Virus record (IMG/VR): IMGVR_UViG_3300020465_001196
Strand: one strand, 5' to 3'
DNA from: a virus
Lineage: Duplodnaviria > Caudoviricetes
DNA: 64,000 bases
Within the stretch, counting starts at the first letter, position 1; every line of letters starts with the position of its first letter. The notes below the pieces were generated by a model. It did no database searches. It was given only the letters and a program-made list of their open reading frames with translations, and had not been told where the DNA came from. The translations under genes were made by a program, and so were the position numbers. This document shows, piece by piece, positions 12,872 to 34,473 of the stretch.

Positions 12872-13138
12872 TTACCTCACTGTTCTCATTACCATTCTAT
12901 ATTGCTTATATGCTTCTTGGTAATTTTTATATGCTTCATTAACTGCTGGGTATTTTTTACGCATATATTGTTCATGTTTTGTTTTTCTTTCTACTTCAGA
13001 AACTTTACGCCTTAAACTTTGAGGATCTGTTTTTTGTGATGTTTTTACTATTGTCCTTCTAGTTATTAATGCTTCTTCTTGAATTAGTTCTTTTAGATCA
13101 TTAAATTCTTGGCGTGTTATTGTTTCTTGCTTACCCAT
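12872..13138 (-). CDS. Hypothetical coiled-coil protein, paralog B
   Basis: KHEQYMRKKYPAVNEAYKNYQ. Confidence 0.65.
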   Translation of the reverse strand: MGKQETITRQEFNDLKELIQEEALITRRTIVKTSQKTDPQSLRRKVSEVERKTKHEQYMRKKYPAVNEAYKNYQEAYKQYRMVMRTVR

Positions 13139-14624
13139 TATTATCTATCCACTTGTTGAGTAGTTTAACTCCCCAACCTGTAGCACCACCTTTTGCTGTC
13201 ATAGATCCTTTATCGTTCCAAGTAACACCTGCTATATCAATATGTGTCCAAGGAGTGTCATTTACAAATCTCTGCAAAAATTGTGCCGCTGTTGTTGAAC
13301 TCGCTTCTCCACCTTTACCTACATTGTGCATATCAGCAATAGTTGAGTCAACATATTTGTCATATCTTTCTCCTATTGGATCGCATGGTAAACGCCATAC
13401 TTTTTCATCTACTTGATGCCCTGCATCAATTAATTGCTGTGCCATTAATGAATTATTTGTAAATATACCAGCAAGTTGATCACCAAGTGCAATTGAAATT
13501 GCTCCTGTTAGTGTTGCTAAATTAATCATTGTTTTTGGCTTGTATGTTTCTTGTGTGTACCATAAGCAATCTGCTAATACTACTCTACCTTCAGCATCTG
13601 TGTTGTCAATTTCAATAGTTTGCCCACTCATAGATGTAATAACATCGCCTGGCTTGTATGCATTACTAGATACCATATTTTCTACTAATCCAATAACACC
13701 AACTGCATTAATAGGCAAATTACGTTTTGCAATACTAATCATTGTACCAACAACTACTGCTGATCCACCCATGTCGTATTTCATATCTTTTAAACCTCTC
13801 GATGGCTTAATAGAATATCCGCCTGTATCGAAACACACACCTTTACCAACAAAGGCACTAGGTGCATCACCTTTTTTGCCATTCATCCATTCCATTACAA
13901 CCATTTGAGATTCTCTAGCACTACCTTGACCTACTGCCAATAATGCACCAGCACCCATTTTTTCAAGTTCTTTTTCACCATATACTTTAACTTTAAGTCC
14001 TAAGGCTTCTAATCCTTTAACACGGTCAGCATATGATTTTGGATATAAAACATTTGATGGTTCTGAAATTAAATCTTTTGCAAATGCAATTCCTTCTACC
14101 ATTGCGTTTTTATGTGTATATTCTTCTTGTAGTTTTGTTAAATCAACACCTTCTTGACAAACATCAACATCAAAATCAGTTTCTTCTTTGTCTTTTTTAG
14201 TAAAGTATTTGTCAAACTTATATTGTTTTAACTGCATACCAAAAGCAATATTACTTACAGATGTTTTAATTTCTTTGTCAGTAAACACTAATACACGACC
14301 TTGTGTACCACGTTCTTGCAATTTAGTGTAAACTGCTCCACCAATCTTTTCTAATTTTGCATCATCTAATTTTACTGGGTCACCTACACTAATAAACAAT
14401 GCATCATGACAAGGAAGATTATTAGATGTAATAAAAAAACTATCTAAAAACTTTCCTTTAAATTTATTTTGCCCAAGTGTTTCGTTTAGTAAACCATCAG
14501 TACCTTGATCTAATATACTTGCTGATTGTGATAGCTGAATGTCATCACCTACTTTATAAAGTAAATGTACTTCACAATTACTTTCACCGCTTGATTCTAA
14601 ATCATTTATAAAATTTATTTTCAT
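13131..14624 (-). CDS. pepA: Leucyl aminopeptidase (M17, PepA)
   Basis: VGKGVCFDTGGYSIK, MKYDMGG, NTDAEGR, ATLTGA, HIDIAG. Confidence 0.96.
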   Translation of the reverse strand: MKINFINDLESSGESNCEVHLLYKVGDDIQLSQSASILDQGTDGLLNETLGQNKFKGKFLDSFFITSNNLPCHDALFISVGDPVKLDDAKLEKIGGAVYTKLQERGTQGRVLVFTDKEIKTSVSNIAFGMQLKQYKFDKYFTKKDKEETDFDVDVCQEGVDLTKLQEEYTHKNAMVEGIAFAKDLISEPSNVLYPKSYADRVKGLEALGLKVKVYGEKELEKMGAGALLAVGQGSARESQMVVMEWMNGKKGDAPSAFVGKGVCFDTGGYSIKPSRGLKDMKYDMGGSAVVVGTMISIAKRNLPINAVGVIGLVENMVSSNAYKPGDVITSMSGQTIEIDNTDAEGRVVLADCLWYTQETYKPKTMINLATLTGAISIALGDQLAGIFTNNSLMAQQLIDAGHQVDEKVWRLPCDPIGERYDKYVDSTIADMHNVGKGGEASSTTAAQFLQRFVNDTPWTHIDIAGVTWNDKGSMTAKGGATGWGVKLLNKWIDNNG

Positions 14625-23539: not shown

Positions 23540-24466
23540 TTAGAATGTAAATTTAAAGCCTGTAGAATAACTGTCTGTATCTAAAGTAGATCCAGTATTA
23601 TTTGCGTGTTGATATTCAACATACGTAGATAATTTTCCAGTTACATTGTACGATGCACCGCCAGTATAGTATGAAGAAGAATCTTCAATTTTACCATAAC
23701 CTGCTGATACTGTTAATTTATCAGAGGCTGAATATGAAGCTACTACTTCATTGCCAGTAACATCTGTTGCGGCATCCTTTAACGTGTAAGTATAACCTAC
23801 TGTCATTGGAAGACCAATTGATGAAGCATCTGTTGTAAACCCTACACCATAATAGTTAATGTCATTAACTTTATCGTTAGATATACCACCTGATACCTTT
23901 ACACCTTCGACTTGATATGTTATTGTACCTTCTTGTACATCAACACCATCTTCTCCAGTTGATCCATCAATTTTAGCTAAACCATCAATTGTAATTGGGC
24001 CTAAATTATTTGAATACGCAATTGTATTTGTATCTCTTACAAATAAATTTTGATCTGCGTTCGAACCATAGACTTCAAATACATCTGTATGACCACTTAC
24101 ATTAGATGTAAATGGAGATGCTTGACGGCCTGCTGATAACGATCCAACCATACCAAAGTCTAAACCTACGTAGGCTAGACGAGAGTCTAGTGGATTATTA
24201 TTTGAGTCGTCAGTATCAACACCAAGTTCTAGTTTAGCAAAGCCAGTAATGCCTTCACCAATGCCTTCACTTGCATCAATACCAATCAACGATGAGTTGT
24301 TCTCAGCTTTCATATATGATTTACCAGAGCTATTTTCATCGTTACTTAATTTGTAATTAAACGTTCCGTAAATTTTTGTTTCTACGGCTTCTGCTTCACT
24401 ACAAGCTGTTAACGAAAATATCGCTACTAGCGAACCTATGATTGCTGTGCTTAAAAATTTTCTCAT
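23540..24466 (-). CDS. Gram-negative general porin
   Basis: Signal peptide, IYGTFN, SRLAYVGL, GRQ, alternating beta-strand pattern, C-terminal GFKFTF. Confidence 0.85.
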   Translation of the reverse strand: MRKFLSTAIIGSLVAIFSLTACSEAEAVETKIYGTFNYKLSNDENSSGKSYMKAENNSSLIGIDASEGIGEGITGFAKLELGVDTDDSNNNPLDSRLAYVGLDFGMVGSLSAGRQASPFTSNVSGHTDVFEVYGSNADQNLFVRDTNTIAYSNNLGPITIDGLAKIDGSTGEDGVDVQEGTITYQVEGVKVSGGISNDKVNDINYYGVGFTTDASSIGLPMTVGYTYTLKDAATDVTGNEVVASYSASDKLTVSAGYGKIEDSSSYYTGGASYNVTGKLSTYVEYQHANNTGSTLDTDSYSTGFKFTF

Positions 24467-24832: not shown

Positions 24833-24853
24833 TGTTTTTATTTATACAAAAAA

Positions 24854-24929
24854 TGGTGCCGCTTCACGGATTCGAACCGCGGACCTACTGATTACAAATC
24901 AGTTGCTCTACCAACTGAGCTAAAGCGGC
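24854..24929 (-). tRNA. trnT: tRNA-Thr(UGU)
   Basis: GCCGCUU acceptor, anticodon arm ACUGA-UUUGUAA-UCAGU, CCA. Confidence 0.96.
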
Positions 24930-24943
24930 ATTCTTACATATTT

Positions 24944-24971
24944 ATAGGGCAAACTATAAAAGCCGCCCTAT
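24944..24971 (-). terminator. Possible terminator hairpin
   Basis: ATAGGGC...GCCCTAT inverted repeat after the 25009 ORF; no strong U-tract. Confidence 0.4.
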
Positions 24972-25385: not shown

Positions 25386-27101
25386 TTATTTTTTTAAACC
25401 ACGTCTAACCATTTGCATTACACCTGGTTTTGTTATAATGCTGGCCAATTTAATAACAACATCTACAACATCATCTTTGTATGTTATTGATAAATCTTTG
25501 CCTTTTGAAAGTGTACGCATAGCAGTTTTAAATCTTGATACTTTGTTTGACGGTACTAAACCTTGTCTTGCAAGATAATCTAATTTTGCTAAATCTTCTC
25601 TGCTGATTGATTCATGTATTACGTTTGCAAAGTCTACAAAGTCAGTGTACTTACCTGCTGTCATCATATTAACCAGTTTAGCTCTTTTAGAAGGATCTGC
25701 TAATGCTGTACCAATTTTATTTAATATTGGTGCCAATTCTGCTTCTTCTGGTGGTGTTAAGGGTTTTAAATTACCTGGTTTAAGTTTGTCTAATGCTTTT
25801 ACGGCTTTGCCTGTAGCATCTGGATTTAATTTTTTAATTTGTGCTAATGTTGGATCTTGTTTTTTCTCTGCATCTTGATCTGCTGTTGTTTGTGTTGTAT
25901 CAGTTTGATCAGTTGGTGCTGGTGCTTTTACACCCATTTGTCCTGCTTCTTTTCTTTGTACAAAATCTGTAATTGCTGTTGTTGAATTCGCTAACAATTG
26001 ATTTACATCGTTTTGTGTAAGTTCCATTTGATGATTTTTTCTAAACCACTCTATAATATTTTTTGAATCTAATGCATTATTTTTTACAAGATCAAATACT
26101 GTTTGACTACCTTGTGGAGTACCATCTGGTTTAAAAGTGTTAGTGTACTCTGCTGGTTCAATTGTTATGTTGTGATTTTTTTGAAACCACTTTGCTGATG
26201 TTTCAGGACTAGCATTTTTTCCAACACTTGCTATAAATCCTTTAAGCTCTCTGTTTATGTTAGTTGCTTGGCTTCCTGAAGTATATTCTGCCCAATTTTT
26301 TGCAATTTTATTTGCTTCAACACCGGTGTTTAATCTACCTTGTGCTTTTCTTGAACCAAACATTGATCCTAACGTGTTTAATGCTTTTTGTGTTCTACTA
26401 AAAGGTTGTGCTTGTTTCTTTTGAAAAGGTGCTTCTGTAAGTATACCTAAATCATAAATTCTATCTGCAATCCATTCATCTGGCATTCCAGTTCTTGCTT
26501 TCATAATACCATATGGCATTTCGCCTGAGTTTGCAAAGTAATTAAACAAATCATCATAAACATCTGAACCATATTCGATATCGTCTATACTTGTAATATT
26601 ATGTTTGTTTAAAATTGCTCTAACTTCATCTTGTTCTGATGCTTCAAACTTACTTCTTAATCTATTATTTTCTTCATCAAAATCTTCTGAGTTCATAAAG
26701 TCTTCCCAAGTAGGATACATTTTTTGATACTCATCATTGTTGTAATAAATTTCTTTTGCAAGTTCTTCTTTAGCACCTCTATCTGATCTTAAAGGATCAA
26801 CTGACTCATCTTTAATTAAATCCATTTGATGCTTTTGTAATTCTTCCATAGAATCAAACTCACCTGTTAGTTTACCATGTCTATATGATCTAAACTTGCC
26901 ACCAAACTTTGTTGCCGCTAAACCATATTTGTTCATGCCCATATCACCTGGACCATCTTCTTGTGATTCTTTTTTAGGTTTACCGTGTTTGTTATGTTGA
27001 GCCCAAGCAATAGCATAGGCTATTGATTTATCGTCAAACTTTTTTTTAAGTTTCTTTACTTGCTTTTCTCTTCCTGGAGGTGCAACTTCGTGGATACGCA
27101 T
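25386..27101 (-). CDS. Modular putative virion internal protein
   Basis: MRIHEV leader; modules separated by [IL]xE-like sites. Confidence 0.65.
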   Translation of the reverse strand: MRIHEVAPPGREKQVKKLKKKFDDKSIAYAIAWAQHNKHGKPKKESQEDGPGDMGMNKYGLAATKFGGKFRSYRHGKLTGEFDSMEELQKHQMDLIKDESVDPLRSDRGAKEELAKEIYYNNDEYQKMYPTWEDFMNSEDFDEENNRLRSKFEASEQDEVRAILNKHNITSIDDIEYGSDVYDDLFNYFANSGEMPYGIMKARTGMPDEWIADRIYDLGILTEAPFQKKQAQPFSRTQKALNTLGSMFGSRKAQGRLNTGVEANKIAKNWAEYTSGSQATNINRELKGFIASVGKNASPETSAKWFQKNHNITIEPAEYTNTFKPDGTPQGSQTVFDLVKNNALDSKNIIEWFRKNHQMELTQNDVNQLLANSTTAITDFVQRKEAGQMGVKAPAPTDQTDTTQTTADQDAEKKQDPTLAQIKKLNPDATGKAVKALDKLKPGNLKPLTPPEEAELAPILNKIGTALADPSKRAKLVNMMTAGKYTDFVDFANVIHESISREDLAKLDYLARQGLVPSNKVSRFKTAMRTLSKGKDLSITYKDDVVDVVIKLASIITKPGVMQMVRRGLKK

Positions 27102-27105
27102 GGCG

Positions 27106-27624
27106 TTACTCCGACTCGTTTGCTCGTTTTAAAGCGTTCGCTACACTTGGATGACTTGCTAAACCTTTAGCAATTTTTTCAATGGCCGCGTGTGCTCCTG
27201 AATAATTACCTTGCTTAAATCTAGGATCATTTAAAATACCAAATGCCATTTTAATTTCTTTATCTGAGAAACCTGCATTATCTTGAGTTTCATCTGGACC
27301 ATCATATTCTTTAACTTCTTTATCTTGTGGTTCTTCTGGTTGTACTACTATTGCAACTGGTGTTTCTTTTTCATTTTCTTTCTTTTCATCGTCCCAAAAC
27401 ATTTCCCAGTGACGTTTTTTTAAACCATCAGCCATTAAATCAAACATTTCGTAACTGTCATTGTGGCTTGATGCAAATTCACGAGCTAATTGATTAATTA
27501 CTTCATGATAATGTTCACCTGCTTTTACTCTAGTAATCATAGATTGAGTAGCATTATCGTAATAATCTTTAAAATTTTGTAATGATGCTGTTTGCTCTGG
27601 TTTAAATAACTCGTTTAATTTCAT
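27106..27624 (-). CDS. Putative virion internal protein
   Basis: MKLNELF leader; TAAATA upstream. Confidence 0.6.
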   Translation of the reverse strand: MKLNELFKPEQTASLQNFKDYYDNATQSMITRVKAGEHYHEVINQLAREFASSHNDSYEMFDLMADGLKKRHWEMFWDDEKKENEKETPVAIVVQPEEPQDKEVKEYDGPDETQDNAGFSDKEIKMAFGILNDPRFKQGNYSGAHAAIEKIAKGLASHPSVANALKRANESE

Positions 27625-27658
27625 AGTATGTGTTTCCTTGTAAATATTTATCTTTTTT

Positions 27659-27910
27659 TTATCTTTTTATCATTGGATAGATATCTTTAACTTTTGTTTT
27701 ATAAGACAACATATCTGGGCTATAACCCATTTTATATATTTCTTTACGTTTTTTACGTGAATTTTTAAATATTTTACCCATTGGATCAACTGCTTTAATA
27801 GCCTGTGCGTGTGTTGTACCCGGTGTCATTGGAAAACTTAAAGCGGCAATGTTACCACTTCCTGTTGCTCCAGCTGATGGTTCTTCATTTATAATATCAC
27901 GAATACGCAT
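27659..27910 (-). CDS. Putative virion internal protein
   Basis: Start moved to MRIRDIINEE just after the upstream stop. Confidence 0.6.
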   Translation of the reverse strand: MRIRDIINEEPSAGATGSGNIAALSFPMTPGTTHAQAIKAVDPMGKIFKNSRKKRKEIYKMGYSPDMLSYKTKVKDIYPMIKR

Positions 27911-27911
27911 A

Positions 27912-28301
27912 TTACCACTTTCTACACGACCAATATCTTGCTTTTGTCTTTGGACCTGGATTATCACAGTTATGTCTAGCACGGAAACTTTTACGTGCTT
28001 TAGGATTAGACTTTCTAATCTTCATAGTCTTTTCACCTTTTCTTTTAGCACTTGTTCCACCGTGACCAAAATTTACTTTTTTAACATTACCAGTTTTTGG
28101 ATCTTTAACATATACTTTAAACTTTGCAACATCACCACGTGTTGGTTTGTTTAGTTTAACTGTTCTGCCTTGGTATTCTGCTTCAAATGTATTACTTTCG
28201 TCTATACTGTATGCAAGGTAGCCAAAGTAATCATGAAAATCACCATGTACTGTAACTTCATTTTCATTTATTTGTTCAAATAATACGTCATCAATTTTCA
28301 T
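27912..28301 (-). CDS. Putative virion internal protein, basic domain
   Basis: MKIDDVLFEQINE leader; KVNFG, RKSFRARHNC, ARYWSCRKW. Confidence 0.7.
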   Translation of the reverse strand: MKIDDVLFEQINENEVTVHGDFHDYFGYLAYSIDESNTFEAEYQGRTVKLNKPTRGDVAKFKVYVKDPKTGNVKKVNFGHGGTSAKRKGEKTMKIRKSNPKARKSFRARHNCDNPGPKTKARYWSCRKW

Positions 28302-28302
28302 A

Positions 28303-28593
28303 TTATACCTCTATGCCTTTCTTTTGCTTTTTTGAATTTTCAATATCTTGTAGCATTTTTAAGAGCTTTTCACCAACATCTTTAAATTCTTTGTATTTAG
28401 GATCGTTGATAACTTTATCGCTTAAAAATTCATCCATAAAATTAAAATTTTGTGGTAAATCATCTGGCCATGCTTTAGATGGAAGTACAAATGAACCCAT
28501 TGCTAATGCTCCAGCTGTTGCCGCCGCTGTTTTACCCATACGTTTCATAAAATCACGTCTGTCATTTTCTGTTATGATATCAAATATACGCAT
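28303..28593 (-). CDS. Putative virion protein with twin-arginine-like signal
   Basis: MRIFDIITE followed by NDRRDFMK and a hydrophobic AAATAGALAMG stretch. Confidence 0.6.
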   Translation of the reverse strand: MRIFDIITENDRRDFMKRMGKTAAATAGALAMGSFVLPSKAWPDDLPQNFNFMDEFLSDKVINDPKYKEFKDVGEKLLKMLQDIENSKKQKKGIEV

Positions 28594-28597
28594 AATA

Positions 28598-29536
28598 CTA
28601 TTTAGTTCTTCCTGACTTCATGTTAGCACACCAGTGATACATCTTTGCTTTTTCACCTGATGCTTTTTTAGCCTTTGCTCTTAGGCTTGTAACTGATCCT
28701 TTGCAACTTGCACCAGAACGTTTTACTCTGCCAGGACGTGATTTACCTTTTTTCTTGCCGTCTGCAAAGTTTTCATTTAGATGTTGCTCTGATATATCTA
28801 AAAACGGAAAAACTTTTAATGCAAGATCTATTCCTGATACATGATCAGATGGATAATGGAACCCTGCTTGTATTCTCCCCATACCAATTTTTTCTGCTAT
28901 TTCTAAAAATTTTTCTTTATGACTAGGATGTTGTTTTGATAAAAATTCAGCAACTATTCTAGCACCACAACTATGTCCACTTGGATATGCTGGTGTTTTA
29001 TTACTTTCACCGTATAGTGTATCAAATTCCATATTGTATACTTCTGCCATTTGATATGGTCTTGGTCTATTATATTTGTTTTTAAATGTTCTAGTTATTT
29101 TCCAAACGTCTTCAATTATTGCTGATATTTCACTTGATCTATAATCTAAATTATTTGTGTTTAAATATTCTCTAAAGTGAAATGCATCCATCATATCTGA
29201 TGCTGATACAGAGTTTTCATCTTCTTGTGTTCTTTTTTCTTGTATGTTTGTAATTGTAACTAATTCATTTTTTGTAGTTTCACTATTATTACTTGGTGGA
29301 TTTTCTAATTCAACTTTTTCCCAACCTTCTTTAAAATGATGTTGTTTATATGCTTCAACTTTTTTATTAGACTCTTTCATTTGATCACTATTAAAGTAAC
29401 CCATACTATTCATTTCTGATTCTTTAATGCTTTCCTTTTTAACACAATTTGGTACACGTTTACCAAACATAGTTTTCATGCCCTTCTTTTGGTAACCGGG
29501 CCAGCATTTTTCATTTATTATATCTGCATATCTCAT
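28598..29536 (-). CDS. PAP2-family phosphatase flanked by basic Cys-containing modules
   Basis: KNKYNRPRP, YPSGHS, RIQAGFHYPSD; MRYADIINE leader. Confidence 0.82.
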   Translation of the reverse strand: MRYADIINEKCWPGYQKKGMKTMFGKRVPNCVKKESIKESEMNSMGYFNSDQMKESNKKVEAYKQHHFKEGWEKVELENPPSNNSETTKNELVTITNIQEKRTQEDENSVSASDMMDAFHFREYLNTNNLDYRSSEISAIIEDVWKITRTFKNKYNRPRPYQMAEVYNMEFDTLYGESNKTPAYPSGHSCGARIVAEFLSKQHPSHKEKFLEIAEKIGMGRIQAGFHYPSDHVSGIDLALKVFPFLDISEQHLNENFADGKKKGKSRPGRVKRSGASCKGSVTSLRAKAKKASGEKAKMYHWCANMKSGRTK

Positions 29537-29835
29537 TTTTTGTACTTGTTGCTAACGTTCTTAGCTTTACCTTTTCTATTTGCGTTAGAATCTTTTCTAC
29601 GTTTTCTATTTACTGCTTGGGCTATTGCTTTCTTACCACCTTTAGCTCTTAATGAAGCCGCTCTTGACTTTGATAAGCATTTAGGTTTACCTTCACCAGG
29701 TTTTTTATCACCACACTTACCAATACGTTCGCCTTTGGTATTATAACGATCCCAGCCTCCGCCTCCGGCACCACCTTTTTTACCTTTACCAAACCAAGCT
29801 CTTAGATCTTCATTTATAATATCACTTATCTTCAT
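29533..29835 (-). CDS. Basic putative virion internal protein
   Basis: MKISDIINE leader; DLRAWF...GW, CG..KPGEGKPKC. Confidence 0.65.
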   Translation of the reverse strand: MKISDIINEDLRAWFGKGKKGGAGGGGWDRYNTKGERIGKCGDKKPGEGKPKCLSKSRAASLRAKGGKKAIAQAVNRKRRKDSNANRKGKAKNVSNKYKK

Positions 29836-30026
29836 TACTTCTTACTCTTGTTTCCCCAATTTTTTGCACCAACTTTTCTGCATCTTACTAGAGCACCGCT
29901 GGCATAAGCTGAAGGCCAAACTTTGTATCTTGACTTAACTTTGTGATAACAAGCATCTTGTTTTTCAGCAAGTTTATCAAATTCAGCTTCAGTAATTGCT
30001 TTTGTTTTGATTTCATTTATTCTCAT
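29835..30026 (-). CDS. Small basic putative virion internal protein
   Basis: MRINEI leader; KVWPSAYASGALVRCRK. Confidence 0.65.
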   Translation of the reverse strand: MRINEIKTKAITEAEFDKLAEKQDACYHKVKSRYKVWPSAYASGALVRCRKVGAKNWGNKSKK

Positions 30027-30664
30027 TTGCCTATCCTCATATTAATTTGATCCCAATCAATAATTGTCATCATTGCTTTAATATATTTTGCTTTTGCATC
30101 TTTGGCAGGAATATAATCTGTAAAACTATGTTCCCACATATCAATTGGCATCAATATATCTGTTTTATAACTTTGATTTGGTGTAGTTTTAATTAAACCT
30201 GTTTTATTTAAATACACCCAACCACTACCTTGTATTGTCATTGCTGATTTAACCATTTCATCAATCATTGTGTTTAAATCACCAAATCTATCTTCAATAA
30301 GATCTTTTATAGCACCATCTGGTTTTGAACCATCTGCTTTTTGTAATTGTTCCCAAAACAAATTATGTAGCATAGCACCGCCATAATTAAAATCTGTATC
30401 ACCTTCTTTATTGTTATATCTTGTTACATATCCGTTTGACAATACGTTGTAATGATATTCTACGTTGTCTTTTGATAATACTGGTGCAAGGTCACTTGTC
30501 TTGTATGCTAATTTTGTTAATTCTAATTTATTTGGTTTTGATTCGTTCATAGAAAACCTCATTCTTTCTAAATATCGTTGCGACATCATTTGTTCTATAC
30601 TTTGTGTTGTTGTAAATTTTTCTTCACCAATACCTGCTAATTTTTTTAATCTTGCTATATCCAT
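30023..30664 (-). CDS. sod: Fe/Mn superoxide dismutase with N-terminal extension
   Basis: LAPVLS..NVEYHY, NYGGAMLHNLFW, QGSGWVYL, PIDMWEHS. Confidence 0.88.
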   Translation of the reverse strand: MDIARLKKLAGIGEEKFTTTQSIEQMMSQRYLERMRFSMNESKPNKLELTKLAYKTSDLAPVLSKDNVEYHYNVLSNGYVTRYNNKEGDTDFNYGGAMLHNLFWEQLQKADGSKPDGAIKDLIEDRFGDLNTMIDEMVKSAMTIQGSGWVYLNKTGLIKTTPNQSYKTDILMPIDMWEHSFTDYIPAKDAKAKYIKAMMTIIDWDQINMRIGK

Positions 30665-30667
30665 GTC

Positions 30668-33600
30668 TTAATCAATATAAAGTTGTGGACTTGCTGAAGC
30701 ATTGGCATCATTCCAATCAATCCCACCTATAACTTTAATCCCTTGTTGTACAAATCCTTCAGTAGCTCTTATGATTTTATATTCTAAAGATTGTGCATTA
30801 AACACCATAATATTAAACGGTGTTTGCTTTCCACTTGCATCTTTTTTACCATCACTGTCAGCGTAACTTTCATACAATAATTCAACTATTACTTTAACTG
30901 CGGTATCATTAAGTTGACCGTTTGTTACTATAGACTCTATTCTTGAATCAAAGTCTTTAATCGCTGTATGATTTTGAATCATTGCTTTCCATAAGGTTAA
31001 CATGAAGTCTTTCATTTTTACATCTCTATCATTTACATCTTGAATATTACTAGCAATAAGGTTATTAATGTTTTGTATTCCTTTTGCATTCCAATTTAGT
31101 TCTAATAATTTTGTTCCTGATAGATATGATTTAAGTAGTTGACTGCCAAGATTTGTAGTTATCCATTGTTTAATAACATTTCTACCTGTTGTAGGTTTAC
31201 TTACATCTTTACCGTTCATTCTTCCACCGGATTTAGCAGATTTACCTGCAGGGTTTCTTGTTTTAGCACCTTTAAGTTCATAAAGTACTCCGCCAACATT
31301 TAAATCTCCAACTTCACCTTTAATAATTGGATTACCAAACATAGTAAGAGCAACTTCTCCAGGACCCATGTTATGACCTGTTCCTGGTGGGCTGTAAGGA
31401 AATACATCTGTCTTAATTGCATCAAATACTGCTTTATACTCTGCACCAACATATCTTTCAATGTTTCCAGCATCAACACTGACCAACGACTGCATATCAA
31501 TTACTTTACCATCTTCTGCATCTTGTAAAAATTTAGTTAAATTTTCTTTTGTAATATTTTTCTTAACTAAAACTTCTGTTGTAAAACTACCTTTAAATCT
31601 ATTTGTGATTTCCCTTTGAATTACTCTATTACCACTTGCTTTGGAAGCCAATCTCATTATGTCTTCATCTAATCCTGCAAACCAATCTGAAACTTCACCT
31701 GCACCAGCATCTTTACCTGCTTTATGAATCATGTCAACATCTTTTTTTACATTTTGTGGTAAGATATTTTTAATATAATTTTCTGCTTGATCAATTGACG
31801 CAACAATTTTATTTTGTAAAAGAAACTGTCCACATTTATTCATATCTATTTTACACATATGAGCAATCATTTGTTGCATTTGTTCAAGTGATGCCATTGA
31901 TATTTGTTCAGCATCTTCTGTTTGTGGCGGTTGCTGTCCTGTGATATTTTTATATGCAACTGCTACTTTGTTAGCCAATGCTTTAAGATAGTTGGCAATT
32001 TTGTTTGACGTGTTAATATCTAAATCTTTGTTTTCTAAATCTTGCTTAATGTTATTAAGAGATTGTTGTACATTTTGAGCTGGTGCATTTTCTTTTATTA
32101 CACCATGTTTAATTAATAATTTTTCTAACTGTTCTTTAATAGGCAACATATAATGATTTTTTTTACCTTTGGTCAAGTATGATAATGTTCTCCAAGTTTT
32201 AAACCATTCGTCTGTACCAGGTTTTGCTGTTGATCTCATTTTTTGATTCATTGCTGTTCCTGGATGTGTTAATAAACTCATTGTTCCTGGATCATTTTGA
32301 TAAGGAACTTCAGAAGGATTAATTTCACCTTTTTTAATTTTTTTTACTTTTCTTTCTTGAATTACTTTTCTAATACCTTTAGTAATTTCTATTAAATCTA
32401 TTTGTTGTTGTAGTGTTAATTCTTTATTTGAACCATTCATTTTAATCAATGCTTCTTTCATACGTTTTACACGTCTCATATTTTTTGGTTGCATAATTGG
32501 AGGTACTCCATCTTTGGTTACTTTAAATCCCATTTTTTTAGCTTCAATTGGAATTTGATTAACTCCAACATCTTGTGTAGTGTTTATTCCTTTAACAATT
32601 TTTCCACCCCATTCTGTTAAATTGTACTGTCCTTTAAATTGTGTAAGTGCTTGTTCTACTTTTGATAATGGATCTTCATCTGCTTGATACTTAACTCCAA
32701 AGCCCCCTCTATCTCTCCAACCTTGAATGTTTCTTCCTCTATCATCAATTAATATGTTTGGCGTACCATCTGGTTGTACTGCGTATGAATCTTTTCTACC
32801 AACTATAATAATGTTATCTGGTTTAATAGCAAGTTCACGTTGTATCCATTTACGTTTTTGTTCTTCACTGTTTTTATGATCTCCTCTTAATGGAGATGAC
32901 AATATTGAATAACTCCCATACATTGCTGTTACCATTTGTAATAGTTTGTCAGCTGTTGGAAATTTTGGTAATCTATTAAAAAAATCTGTACCTACCATTT
33001 TATTTAATGTAGGATCTGTTTTGGCTGGTGGAATATCTTTATAGTTACCTGACTTAACTCCAGCCAGTTTAGCATACTCTTCAAAAAAGTTTGCTAACAC
33101 ACCATCCATATCAACATAAACAATTGGTTTGCTTTTTGGTTCTTCATTTACACTTTCGTTGATATCATATGACTTACCTTTGTGTTTTTCATAACCACGT
33201 TTGTCTAATGCTTTTTTATCTTTATGTGTTCCAGCCGCTCCACTTTTGCGAAGTGCTTCCATGTCTCTCCAATTTGGATCACGTTTTTTAATTTCTGGGT
33301 CTTTAGGCATTTTTGGTTTTTTTGATTCGTTAACACCCATTCCTTTTCTTACTTTTGTATATAATTCTTTTTTAAGATTTTCTCCACCATCAACTGTTTG
33401 TGAAAATGAACTAAAGTCACCTGCTCTTGCAAATGCTCTTGCCTTAGTTGCTGACACACCTTGTACATCTGTTGCATCTGCATCACGTTCGCCTGAACTT
33501 ACAACTGTAAATTTATCAATACCAAATTCTTTCATATACGGTTTCATCTGAGATTCAAAATCTTGTTTACGATCTGAACCAACAACCAATGTTACTTCTC

Positions 33601-33892
33601 TATAATGTTTGCCTAGTTCTTCAAGTGCCTGCCAAGGATTTTTTACATTTGGATCATCAACAATATTTACTGTTGGGTACATAGCTCTCATTAATGTAAT
33701 TTTATCTTCATAGTTTAATGGATTACGTTTTGGATCTTGTGTTCTACCAGTGTAAACATAATGGTCAGCACCATTGGCTCCATTTTTAACCATGTTCAAA
33801 AGGTGTGCGTGACCTTTGGTAGGAGGATTAAACCTACCAAAAGTAAAAACTGCCTTAGTACTTTTTGGCTGTATAAGTTCATTTAGCTTCAT
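30668..33892 (-). CDS. Multidomain protein: cytidyltransferase-like + HAD 5'-nucleotidase-like + C-terminal nuclease-like region
   Basis: FGRFNPPTKGH, VVGSDR, VSATKAR; YVDMDGVL...ILIDD; GPGE...GDLNVGGVLYELKG. Confidence 0.75.
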   Translation of the reverse strand: MKLNELIQPKSTKAVFTFGRFNPPTKGHAHLLNMVKNGANGADHYVYTGRTQDPKRNPLNYEDKITLMRAMYPTVNIVDDPNVKNPWQALEELGKHYREVTLVVGSDRKQDFESQMKPYMKEFGIDKFTVVSSGERDADATDVQGVSATKARAFARAGDFSSFSQTVDGGENLKKELYTKVRKGMGVNESKKPKMPKDPEIKKRDPNWRDMEALRKSGAAGTHKDKKALDKRGYEKHKGKSYDINESVNEEPKSKPIVYVDMDGVLANFFEEYAKLAGVKSGNYKDIPPAKTDPTLNKMVGTDFFNRLPKFPTADKLLQMVTAMYGSYSILSSPLRGDHKNSEEQKRKWIQRELAIKPDNIIIVGRKDSYAVQPDGTPNILIDDRGRNIQGWRDRGGFGVKYQADEDPLSKVEQALTQFKGQYNLTEWGGKIVKGINTTQDVGVNQIPIEAKKMGFKVTKDGVPPIMQPKNMRRVKRMKEALIKMNGSNKELTLQQQIDLIEITKGIRKVIQERKVKKIKKGEINPSEVPYQNDPGTMSLLTHPGTAMNQKMRSTAKPGTDEWFKTWRTLSYLTKGKKNHYMLPIKEQLEKLLIKHGVIKENAPAQNVQQSLNNIKQDLENKDLDINTSNKIANYLKALANKVAVAYKNITGQQPPQTEDAEQISMASLEQMQQMIAHMCKIDMNKCGQFLLQNKIVASIDQAENYIKNILPQNVKKDVDMIHKAGKDAGAGEVSDWFAGLDEDIMRLASKASGNRVIQREITNRFKGSFTTEVLVKKNITKENLTKFLQDAEDGKVIDMQSLVSVDAGNIERYVGAEYKAVFDAIKTDVFPYSPPGTGHNMGPGEVALTMFGNPIIKGEVGDLNVGGVLYELKGAKTRNPAGKSAKSGGRMNGKDVSKPTTGRNVIKQWITTNLGSQLLKSYLSGTKLLELNWNAKGIQNINNLIASNIQDVNDRDVKMKDFMLTLWKAMIQNHTAIKDFDSRIESIVTNGQLNDTAVKVIVELLYESYADSDGKKDASGKQTPFNIMVFNAQSLEYKIIRATEGFVQQGIKVIGGIDWNDANASASPQLYID

Positions 33893-34032
33893 CTATGTTT
33901 ACCTTGTCCATTATATTTTTTATAACTTCTTTTTTTATCTTTATTCATAGATGATTTTTTAACTTTACCACCGCCTATGCTAGTACGTTTTGGCTTATGA
34001 TCAATACTTGACTCTATACTTTTTAACGCCAT
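33889..34032 (-). CDS. Small basic 47-aa protein (not in ORF track)
   Basis: MALKSIESSIDHKPKRTSIGGGKVKKSSMNKDKKRSYKKYNGQGKHR; coupled at both ends. Confidence 0.65.
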   Translation of the reverse strand: MALKSIESSIDHKPKRTSIGGGKVKKSSMNKDKKRSYKKYNGQGKHR

Positions 34033-34415
34033 TATCGAGCTCCTCTTTTTAGATCTACATGATCGTATTCACCGTCTTCCATATTACTAATTTCTTCATC
34101 TGCTATTTGTTTTGCGGCTAAATTTCTAACTACACCAGACCATTTATGTCTAGCCATATGCCCTGCATCTTGCTTGGCAACATTATCAATTAAATATCTC
34201 CATAATTTAATTGCTAGATTATGATCGTATGTACCTTTAGCACGTTTACGCATAAGATTTATAATAATAGGAAAGTATTGTCTGTTGTATAAAGCTGGAT
34301 CGTTTTGTGCCAACATTGCTAATTCTTCAGCAGATGCTAATACATCAGTGTCGTTTGCTTGAGCAGGATCACTTTCAACTAGCTTTAAATACTCTTTAAA
34401 TGTTTTATTTGTCAT
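34032..34415 (-). CDS. Putative virion internal protein
   Basis: Leader MTNKTFKEYLKLVE resembles the T4 internal-protein targeting sequence. Confidence 0.6.
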   Translation of the reverse strand: MTNKTFKEYLKLVESDPAQANDTDVLASAEELAMLAQNDPALYNRQYFPIIINLMRKRAKGTYDHNLAIKLWRYLIDNVAKQDAGHMARHKWSGVVRNLAAKQIADEEISNMEDGEYDHVDLKRGAR

Positions 34416-34473
34416 GACAATTCCTTAAATTATGTATATACATACATATTTATACTGTCAAGAACTATTTCAA

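Follow-up and report, generated by a model that had tools for sequence, protein, structure and literature searches.

We examined a 64,000-nucleotide stretch of DNA from a virus of the Caudoviricetes (Duplodnaviria; IMG/VR record IMGVR_UViG_3300020465_001196), here referred to as the window, and identified at positions 25386-34415 a run of twelve adjacent minus-strand genes, abutting or overlapping by a few bases, most of which share a short N-terminal leader. Nine of the twelve start with M-[KR]-[ILY]-x-[DE]-[ILV] (25386-27101, 27106-27624, 27659-27910, 27912-28301, 28303-28593, 28598-29536, 29533-29835, 29835-30026 and 30668-33892), and the other three comprise one gene with a tag like that of the T4 internal protein IPI, one that starts with a copy of the scaffold C-terminus (LKKLAGIG) and one that encodes a 47-amino acid basic peptide with no tag. 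We propose that the leader is probably this lineage's own form of the capsid-targeting propeptide of T4, in a system enlarged here to a dozen or more cargo genes; as the N-terminal tags are T4-like, the phage therefore probably packs swappable enzymes and DNA-binding proteins in its capsid. A first-pass annotation had reported about 11 tagged neighbours, and every N-terminus that it quoted was found on the minus strand at the place where it had been put.

We walked 93 kb upstream of the window by exact-protein matches between overlapping contigs from Tara and ENA, of which one measures 314 kb, and obtained a stitched segment of 156,694 nt in which all joins were exact over 300 nt and of which the last 64 kb are the window. 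With the strict motif defined as M[KR][ILVYFM]x[DE][ILVMF], 14 of the 220 genes in this 157-kb segment matched. A column-shuffle null averaged 0.9 genes and peaked at 5, and 0.33 genes were predicted from the non-leader genes. Nine of these 14 fell inside one span of 12 genes, a clustering reached by 0 of 20,000 permutations, and the strict motif was absent from the approximately 100 other minus-strand genes of the window. When the window and 50 related loci were taken together, 140 motif matches were found on the gene strand, with 128 at the first ATG and the remaining 12 no more than 44 residues from the start of the open reading frame (ORF), and there were zero matches in the three opposite-strand frames.

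A common N-terminus could also be a by-product of cassette recombination or of constraints on translation initiation (AT-rich first codons, leaderless mRNAs), and both the extensive module shuffling at the locus and a TAAATA lying 6 nt ahead of the ATG of one leader gene (at 28593) would fit such an origin. However, the leader codons vary synonymously (Arg CGT/AGA; Ile ATT/ATC/ATA; Leu TTA/CTA) and the upstream DNA is unrelated, so that the leader is conserved at the protein level, since the codons differ and no upstream DNA is held in common. A Shine-Dalgarno sequence of its own or translational coupling was seen for most leader genes, and about 200 other genes of the same base composition do not have the motif. 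We regard a by-product origin as highly improbable, and the idea of a cassette at the nucleotide level was rejected, as codons and upstream DNA differ.

The leaders typically end in [ILVM]-x-Glu, and 74 of the 79 distinct leaders had a site of this kind ending by residue 16, versus 31% in the background. Within the T4 capsid-targeting sequence (CTS), targeting is directed by residues 4 and 7 and processing by residues 8 and 10, and Asp at position 10 blocks processing with targeting left intact (PMC9026906). Since Asp at P1 blocks processing in T4, leaders with Asp at position 5 should need a Glu site further downstream, and this prediction held: 19 of 21 Asp-5 leaders add an [ILVM]xE ending at residues 6-16 and the two exceptions carry FxE, as against 24 of 58 Glu-5 leaders with an added site in the same interval (Fisher p = 9e-5). 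Similar sites were found inside proteins. At all 20 internal junctions of the NFADGK module the residue just before the module is Glu, and in 15 of the 20 P3 is hydrophobic (background 24%, p = 3e-6); module G (the TATAG module), where it lies inside a larger protein, follows [IVM]xE in all 7 cases. Read from these sequences, the dependency of Asp-5 on a later Glu and the sites at the junctions make sense only at the protein level, which is a further point against a by-product origin.

The junction sites are best illustrated by the 1074-amino acid polyprotein (30668-33892, minus strand), which starts with MKLNELI (leader MKLNE, 33878-33892). Its profile domains follow the leader in the order cytidylyltransferase/NMNAT-like domain, RDPNWRDME module, NT5C nucleotidase, GKIVKGINTT module and a 410-residue C-terminal domain, with [ILV]xE border sites at VNE189 (33326-33334), INE246 (33155-33163), VNE250 (33143-33151) and LTE427 (32612-32620). 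A search of IMG/VR with the whole protein returned 49 loci, in which the cytidylyltransferase/NMNAT-like, RDPNWRDME, NT5C and GxIVKGxNTT modules are encoded individually, every one of them behind a leader of its own. The last 410 residues, used as a leaderless query against a large protein collection, gave 21 homologues, 19 of them full-length and standalone, and 18 of these 19 start with MRFFEFKLPE, MRAFEFKLYE, MRFKEF or similar. Across the relatives, 86 unique leader proteins formed a mosaic of shuffled modules. The earlier description of the domains behind the leader as unrelated was thus only partly right, as the cargo bodies are not all unrelated but consist of shuffled modules, some of them fused in polyproteins.

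The same plasticity was seen between close relatives. The complete genome of the relative G033, which measures 328,149 bp and has terminal repeats, shows synteny at about 84% nucleotide identity, but in the cluster interval no DNA-level alignment was obtained. G033 has no counterpart of the SOD-like, 63-amino acid, 100-amino acid, PAP2 and 129-amino acid genes or of the C-terminal domain of the polyprotein, and it carries one leader gene missing from the window. Among its 449 ORFs there are 12 strict leaders and 2 T4-type CTSs, with 8 in the cluster and 2 in the head operon. Judged by these comparisons, the locus is hyperplastic, in that close relatives differ by gain, loss, splitting and fusion of modules, and the free-standing modules keep the leader.

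A T4-type head operon was found in the stitched segment, in the order portal, 128-amino acid basic protein, 66-amino acid protein, 308-amino acid acidic protein, S77 protease, protein in the scaffold position and gp23-family capsid protein. The portal belongs to PF07230 and the capsid protein to PF07068 (334 bits), the protein in the scaffold position is a 367-amino acid coiled coil (L064:8896-9999), and the protease (L064:8255-8884) matched Peptidase_S77 (PF03420) with 91 bits (cut-off 27), showed 36% identity to T4 gp21 and kept the His and Ser motifs (GEADHP and GVSSRG). The two small proteins of the portal-protease interval, in the place of T4 gp67/gp68, start with MKIYEISNTE and MRYKEIIKE, and the gene of the first sits behind TATAAATA. 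The capsid propeptide ends in TYLAE, followed by the conserved mature N-terminus AATTGATGAGNVAAL, and LLE and ILE sites also occur close to the N-termini of the protease and scaffold.

We also examined 80 related IMG/VR head loci, with protease identities of 64-100%. In about 50 of them a leader protein of 66-79 amino acids (e.g. MRYNELKE, MKLFEMFDP) lies between portal and protease; most of the others have little or no sequence upstream of the protease, and a few with such sequence showed none. PF03420 was not found in 32 IMG/VR contigs with related clusters, which is uninformative because all of these are fragments no more than 43% complete. The association with the portal-protease interval bears on the idea that the leader is a recognition tag for some other phage enzyme, such as a RiPP-like (ribosomally synthesized and post-translationally modified peptide) radical-SAM system, ClpXP/ClpS or the M17 aminopeptidase of the window. 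The genome does carry many radical-SAM genes together with ClpX, ClpP, ClpS and an M17 peptidase, but neither in the window nor in G033 do the cluster or the genes immediately beside it include any radical-SAM, Clp or peptidase gene, and leader proteins are present in virions of the Pseudomonas jumbo phage PA5oct, as described below. Such a role is extremely unlikely in our judgement, and the radical-SAM/Clp idea was rejected on the gene neighbourhood of the window, G033 and the 80 head loci.

PA5oct has a protease 60% identical to that of the window phage and the same head operon order, and its virion proteome offers a baseline of 93 proteins detected among 461 (PMC7318152). Its 73-amino acid gp333 starts with MKINDIITE and is annotated as a virion protein by electrospray ionization tandem mass spectrometry (ESI-MS/MS), and gp257, which starts with MTNKTFKRFLSTE, is likewise a virion protein detected by mass spectrometry. 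Altogether, PA5oct has seven ORFs that start with a leader or a T4-type CTS, and the products of five were detected in virions (gp333, gp254, gp257, gp104 and gp105; binomial p of about 0.005 by our own estimate), whereas the scaffold gp330, which ends in EELRRLAGIK, was not detected there. The word "internal" does not occur in the PA5oct paper (PMC7318152).

Cyanophages gave a second line of evidence from virions. Gp154 of S-CREM2 was found in purified virions by mass spectrometry, and cytidyltransferases and kinases are frequent in cyanophage virion proteomes (PMC10665884). This gp154 is a homologue of the first domain of the polyprotein and starts with MKNFSSFLTE behind TATAAATA; other cyanophage homologues of the cytidylyltransferase domain start with MKSFFQFLSE (S-SM2) and (M)KSFLEFITE (Sf-FS3). 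The likeness is thus that of an enzyme homologous to polyprotein domain 1, detected in virions and with a CTS-like start. Unlike the proteins of the window, however, the cyanophage enzymes are encoded by single genes with T4-type CTSs, and the study itself does not tie virion association to the N-terminal tag (PMC10665884).

The capsid-targeting sequence found on the T4 internal proteins was reportedly the subject of work by Mullaney and Black in 1996. In T4, it is carried by IPI, IPII, IPIII and Alt (PMC9026906, PMC3012670), and the internal proteins are described as basic (PMC9026906). In the T4 genome (NC_000866), ipII and ipIII start with MKTYQEFIAE and ipI with MKTFKEF, with ITE at position 19, gp24 starts with MAKINELLRE and gp23 is cut after LTE. 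Our leader resembles the T4 CTS as an N-terminal peptide of about 10 residues common to otherwise unrelated proteins, in the spacing hydrophobic-x-acidic-hydrophobic-hydrophobic-x-Glu that ends in a gp21 site, in its company of a gp21-family protease and scaffold core, and in a variable, mostly basic cargo at a hyperplastic locus. Near-T4 versions are present as well, on the first gene of the cluster (34032-34415, MTNKTFKEY) and elsewhere in the stitched genome (MKTFKDYLAE). On the other hand, at least 14 genes are tagged in half a genome here, versus 3-4 in T4, and the cargo, known from sequence, includes multi-domain polyproteins with internal sites, recognisable enzymes and a second type of tag. 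The proposal of the first-pass annotation, that of a portable T4 CTS-like tag cut after [IL]xE, is supported by the T4-type protease and scaffold, the leaders in the head operon, the spacing, the Asp-5 rule and the PA5oct virions. The sections of the capsid-targeting literature covered here describe CTS-like sequences on variable internal proteins of T-even phages, and describe no such leader set for marine or PA5oct-like jumbo phages.

Two other processing systems were compared. The propeptide of T4 gp24 (MAKINELLRE) is the closest sequence match of the main leader (cf. MKLNELFKPE, MRINEI) and is likewise a short N-terminal propeptide ending in hydrophobic-x-Glu, but gp24 is a shell protein and not cargo, and the propeptide of the gp23-family protein here is longer and ends in TYLAE. 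In phiKZ-like giant phages (phiKZ, 201phi2-1 and SPN3US), many head-internal proteins, ejection and inner-body proteins among them, are processed C-terminal to Glu by a gp21-related protease (gp175/gp245), and their propeptides are believed to direct proteins to the prohead (PMC5694885). Unlike our leaders, these proteins follow an (S/A/G)-x-Glu motif, have propeptides mostly of more than 100 residues and share no common short leader, and these phages form a separate lineage with a virion RNA polymerase. We rejected the phiKZ-like inner-body system for the window phage, as P3 is Ile, Leu, Val or Met here, the leaders are of 5-13 residues and the gp20/gp21/gp23-type head is nearest to that of PA5oct.

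It is also conceivable that the leader is a propeptide for assembly of the prohead core only, and that the tagged proteins are internal scaffolding, DNA-condensing or structural proteins, degraded or kept in the head, rather than delivered effectors. The leader protein that is ancestral and most conserved occupies the gp67/gp68 core position, many of the proteins in the cluster are small and very basic with no enzyme domains, and T4 gp67, gp68 and gp22 are degraded and not delivered. Several tagged proteins are, however, intact enzymes (NMNAT-like, NT5C, PAP2 and SOD-like), the hyperplastic locus resembles the T4 internal protein loci, which encode injected anti-defence proteins, and the cyanophage homologues persist in mature virions. 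A role confined to the core is therefore unlikely in our view, and a capsid-targeting leader on packaged cargo is the reading that we prefer.

In addition to the leader, we identified a second type of tag. The Fe/Mn superoxide dismutase (SOD)-like protein (30023-30664, minus strand; SOD domains) starts with MDIARLKKLAGIGEE, and its N-terminal tag MDIARLKKLAGIGE (30623-30664) contains LKKLAGIG, which matches the end of the scaffold (...ELKKLAGLGVN). The first-pass annotation had counted MDIARLKKLAGI among the ordinary leaders; it is in fact a different tag that mimics the scaffold C-terminus. A tag of this type also heads a family of 66-75-amino acid proteins in 12 related clusters, where IxE often follows. 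The scaffolds themselves end with [KR][KR]LAG[LI] in all 73 that could be read among the 80 head loci, and in the PA5oct scaffold as well. In six-frame translations, [KR][KR]LAG[ILV] was limited to the scaffold C-terminus and the N-termini of cluster proteins, and in those of G033 and the more distant relative G034 it occurred at the scaffold C-terminus only. We infer that the scaffold C-terminal peptide serves for docking and has been taken over as an address for cargo; the tag presumably has the same docking partner as the scaffold tail. Short peptides that dock unrelated cargo to a shell or scaffold are known from encapsulin cargo-loading peptides and from engineered fusions to the P22 scaffold C-terminus. 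The second tag is alike in that a short peptide docks inside an HK97-fold shell or to a scaffold, with LKKLAG[IV] here corresponding to the scaffold C-terminus. It is unlike them in being N-terminal, natural and in a T4-type phage, and sequence similarity to encapsulin is not established. In PA5oct, a scaffold-type peptide was also observed at an internal position of the virion protein gp249.

The first-pass annotation had noted TAAATA upstream of several genes, a point that was confirmed only in part. The T4 late-promoter consensus TATAAATA (34447-34454, minus strand) precedes the first gene of the cluster by 31 nt, GATAAATA lies at 27645-27652 (minus strand) upstream of the gene at 27106-27624, and the third case is the TAAATA before 28593 mentioned above. 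TATAAATA is depleted in the window, with 5 copies versus 14.6 expected, and all 5 are correctly oriented just upstream of a gene or of the tRNA-Thr (24939-24946). In the stitched genome, the ATAAATA core is found ahead of the portal, neck, tube and terminase genes. A tRNA-Thr gene (anticodon TGT; 24854-24929, minus strand) was observed between the TATAAATA sites at 24839-24846 and 24939-24946.

By analogy with T4, the system may operate as follows. The cluster, which has T4-late-type promoter motifs, would be transcribed from these, perhaps late in infection, and the precursors would dock through their leaders to the scaffold core of the assembling prohead. After closure of the shell, the gp21-type S77 protease would cut behind the Glu of the hydrophobic-x-Glu sites, which are present in the proteins, and in doing so would remove the leaders and split fused polyproteins at their domain borders. 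The mature proteins would then be retained inside the head alongside the DNA and would probably exit with it at infection, as ejection is known for T4 IPI and Alt. The head contents would be mostly basic DNA-binding modules, together with the NMNAT-like nucleotidyltransferase, the NT5C nucleotidase, the PAP2 phosphatase and the SOD-like protein. A fuller version is possible, though we hold it only tentatively: loading would use two addresses, the CTS-like leader to the scaffold core and the copy of the scaffold tail, the modular cargo would be cut by the protease, and an enzyme kit for NAD/nucleotide metabolism with a phosphatase, a SOD and a Tat-signal protein would be delivered at infection.

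Several points weigh against reading the leader as a capsid-targeting tag. The main leader is one residue shorter than the T4 CTS and not identical to it in sequence, [ILVM]xE is short and occurs by residue 16 in 31% of the background proteins, and the related sequences are non-independent, so that the p-values given above are optimistic. The head operon was found outside the window, on overlapping metagenome contigs of the same population. Two PA5oct leader ORFs, gp103 and gp408, were not seen in virions, and G034 (303 kb) has only three leader genes, because of which the expansion of the cargo is lineage-specific. ATAAATA also precedes non-structural genes, such as those of EF-G and a cold-shock protein, and late timing is therefore not established. 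For the window phage, every functional step is deduced from homology and motif logic.

Following the cluster in the direction of transcription, the first gene (34032-34415, minus strand) encodes a 127-amino acid cargo protein with the IPI-like tag MTNKTFKEYLKLVE (34374-34415), and its homologues in relatives have MKLFEL or MRLNELF leaders instead of this tag. It is followed by the 47-amino acid peptide (33889-34032, minus strand), which is very basic (isoelectric point, pI, 10.5), has no recognisable tag, is translationally coupled to its neighbours and is conserved in G033. The polyprotein and the SOD-like gene come next. The C-terminal domain of the polyprotein (30671-31900, minus strand) was observed to be a conserved viral domain with invariant PGGTG, GPGEVAL, GDL and YE-K-G. 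An Atlas search with it gave viral clusters without names and, as a weak lead (0.75), R.HinP1I, a profile search of PDB gave no match, and for its AlphaFold2 model (mean predicted local distance difference test, pLDDT, 82) Foldseek gave no match and VIA only helical hairpins (Z <8). Its GDL...YELKG motif may be that of a PD-(D/E)xK-like nuclease, an assignment that stays a guess because the structure and profile searches gave no match.

Four leader genes follow on the minus strand. The 63-amino acid basic protein (29835-30026; pI 10.0) has the leader MRINEIKTKAITE (29988-30026) and a WPSAYASG module, and matched pieces of phrog_727 and phrog_3477. The 100-amino acid Gly/Lys-rich protein (29533-29835; pI 10.7, net charge +23) has the leader MKISDIINE (29809-29835). 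The 312-amino acid PAP2 phosphatase protein (28598-29536), recognised by a domain match, consists of the leader MRYADIINE (29510-29536), a CWPGY module, the PAP2 domain, HLNE and a basic NFADGKKKG module. The 96-amino acid protein (28303-28593) has the leader MRIFDIITE (28567-28593), behind which NDRRDFMKRMG and a hydrophobic Ala/Gly-rich stretch resemble a twin-arginine (Tat) signal; its G033 counterpart has MRILEIISE and then NDRRDFMK. If cleavage in the head removes the leader, the Tat signal would be exposed on the delivered protein.

The last four genes, also on the minus strand, start with a 129-amino acid basic protein (27912-28301; leader MKIDDVLFEQINE, 28263-28301), the phrog_7595 module of which is internal in larger proteins of relatives. 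The 83-amino acid basic protein (27659-27910) represents module G, and its leader MRIRDIINE (27884-27910) starts at the first ATG within a longer GTG ORF. The predicted mature N-terminus of module G, SAGATGSGNIAAL, was observed to be closely like that predicted for the capsid protein, TGATGAGNVAAL (L064:10001-11179), the PA5oct equivalent of which is SAGATQAGNIATI; from this likeness, module G proteins may mimic the N-terminal arm of the capsid protein. The 172-amino acid acidic protein (27106-27624) starts with MKLNELF (leader MKLNELFKPE, 27595-27624). The cluster ends with a 571-amino acid protein (25386-27101), which starts with MRIHEV (leader MRIHE, 27087-27101) and matched nothing by tblastn against cultured phages or in an Atlas search; its homologue in G033 is 824 amino acids long with an identical leader. 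In total, 8 of the 12 cluster proteins have a pI >9, versus 22% genome-wide.

Outside the cluster, we observed a 664-amino acid DUF6267 protein with the leader MKINDIKLDE at 102738-104732 of the stitched genome in window-equivalent numbering (L060:14348-16342). Its PA5oct counterpart, gp256, starts with MNIAEI and was not detected in virions. In the cultured marine T4-like Methylophilales phage Melnitz, a P-loop kinase-like protein (L183:8214-8882) has the CTS-like start MKTFAELQE, and its gene adjoins an NT5C homologue with no tag. Just downstream of the cluster, the window encodes a Porin_4 Gram-negative porin (E = 1.6e-20) with a lipoprotein-like signal peptide (23540-24466, minus strand). 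A full-length gene for an M17 leucyl aminopeptidase (E = 8e-118) lies at 13131-14624 (minus strand), and no link of it to the leader was seen.

The window has a GC content of about 31% and nearly all of its genes lie on one strand. Its clamp loader is nearest to those of the PA5oct group (52% identity) and of Atu_ph07, and megablast of the cluster against cultured phages gave no nucleotide match. The phage is an uncultured marine jumbo phage related to T4, with a genome of about 325 kb; related 152-kb IMG/VR contigs, which were scored 43% complete, point to genomes of about 350 kb.

If the leader is what we propose, a simple N-terminal rule, a leader with hydrophobic-x-Glu or a scaffold-tail tag, would predict capsid-packed proteins in aquatic jumbo phages of a group that is both large and abundant and has the cultured Pseudomonas phage PA5oct among its members. 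The idea of T4 internal proteins, which covers three small proteins with anti-restriction or DNA-binding roles, would then extend to at least a dozen, among them enzymes and processed polyproteins, and the recurrent non-structural enzymes of cyanophage virion proteomes would be explained. The tags would also be natural ones for loading foreign proteins in large capsids, and the first minutes of infection would be a time of phage action on the NAD/nucleotide metabolism and oxidative stress of the host.

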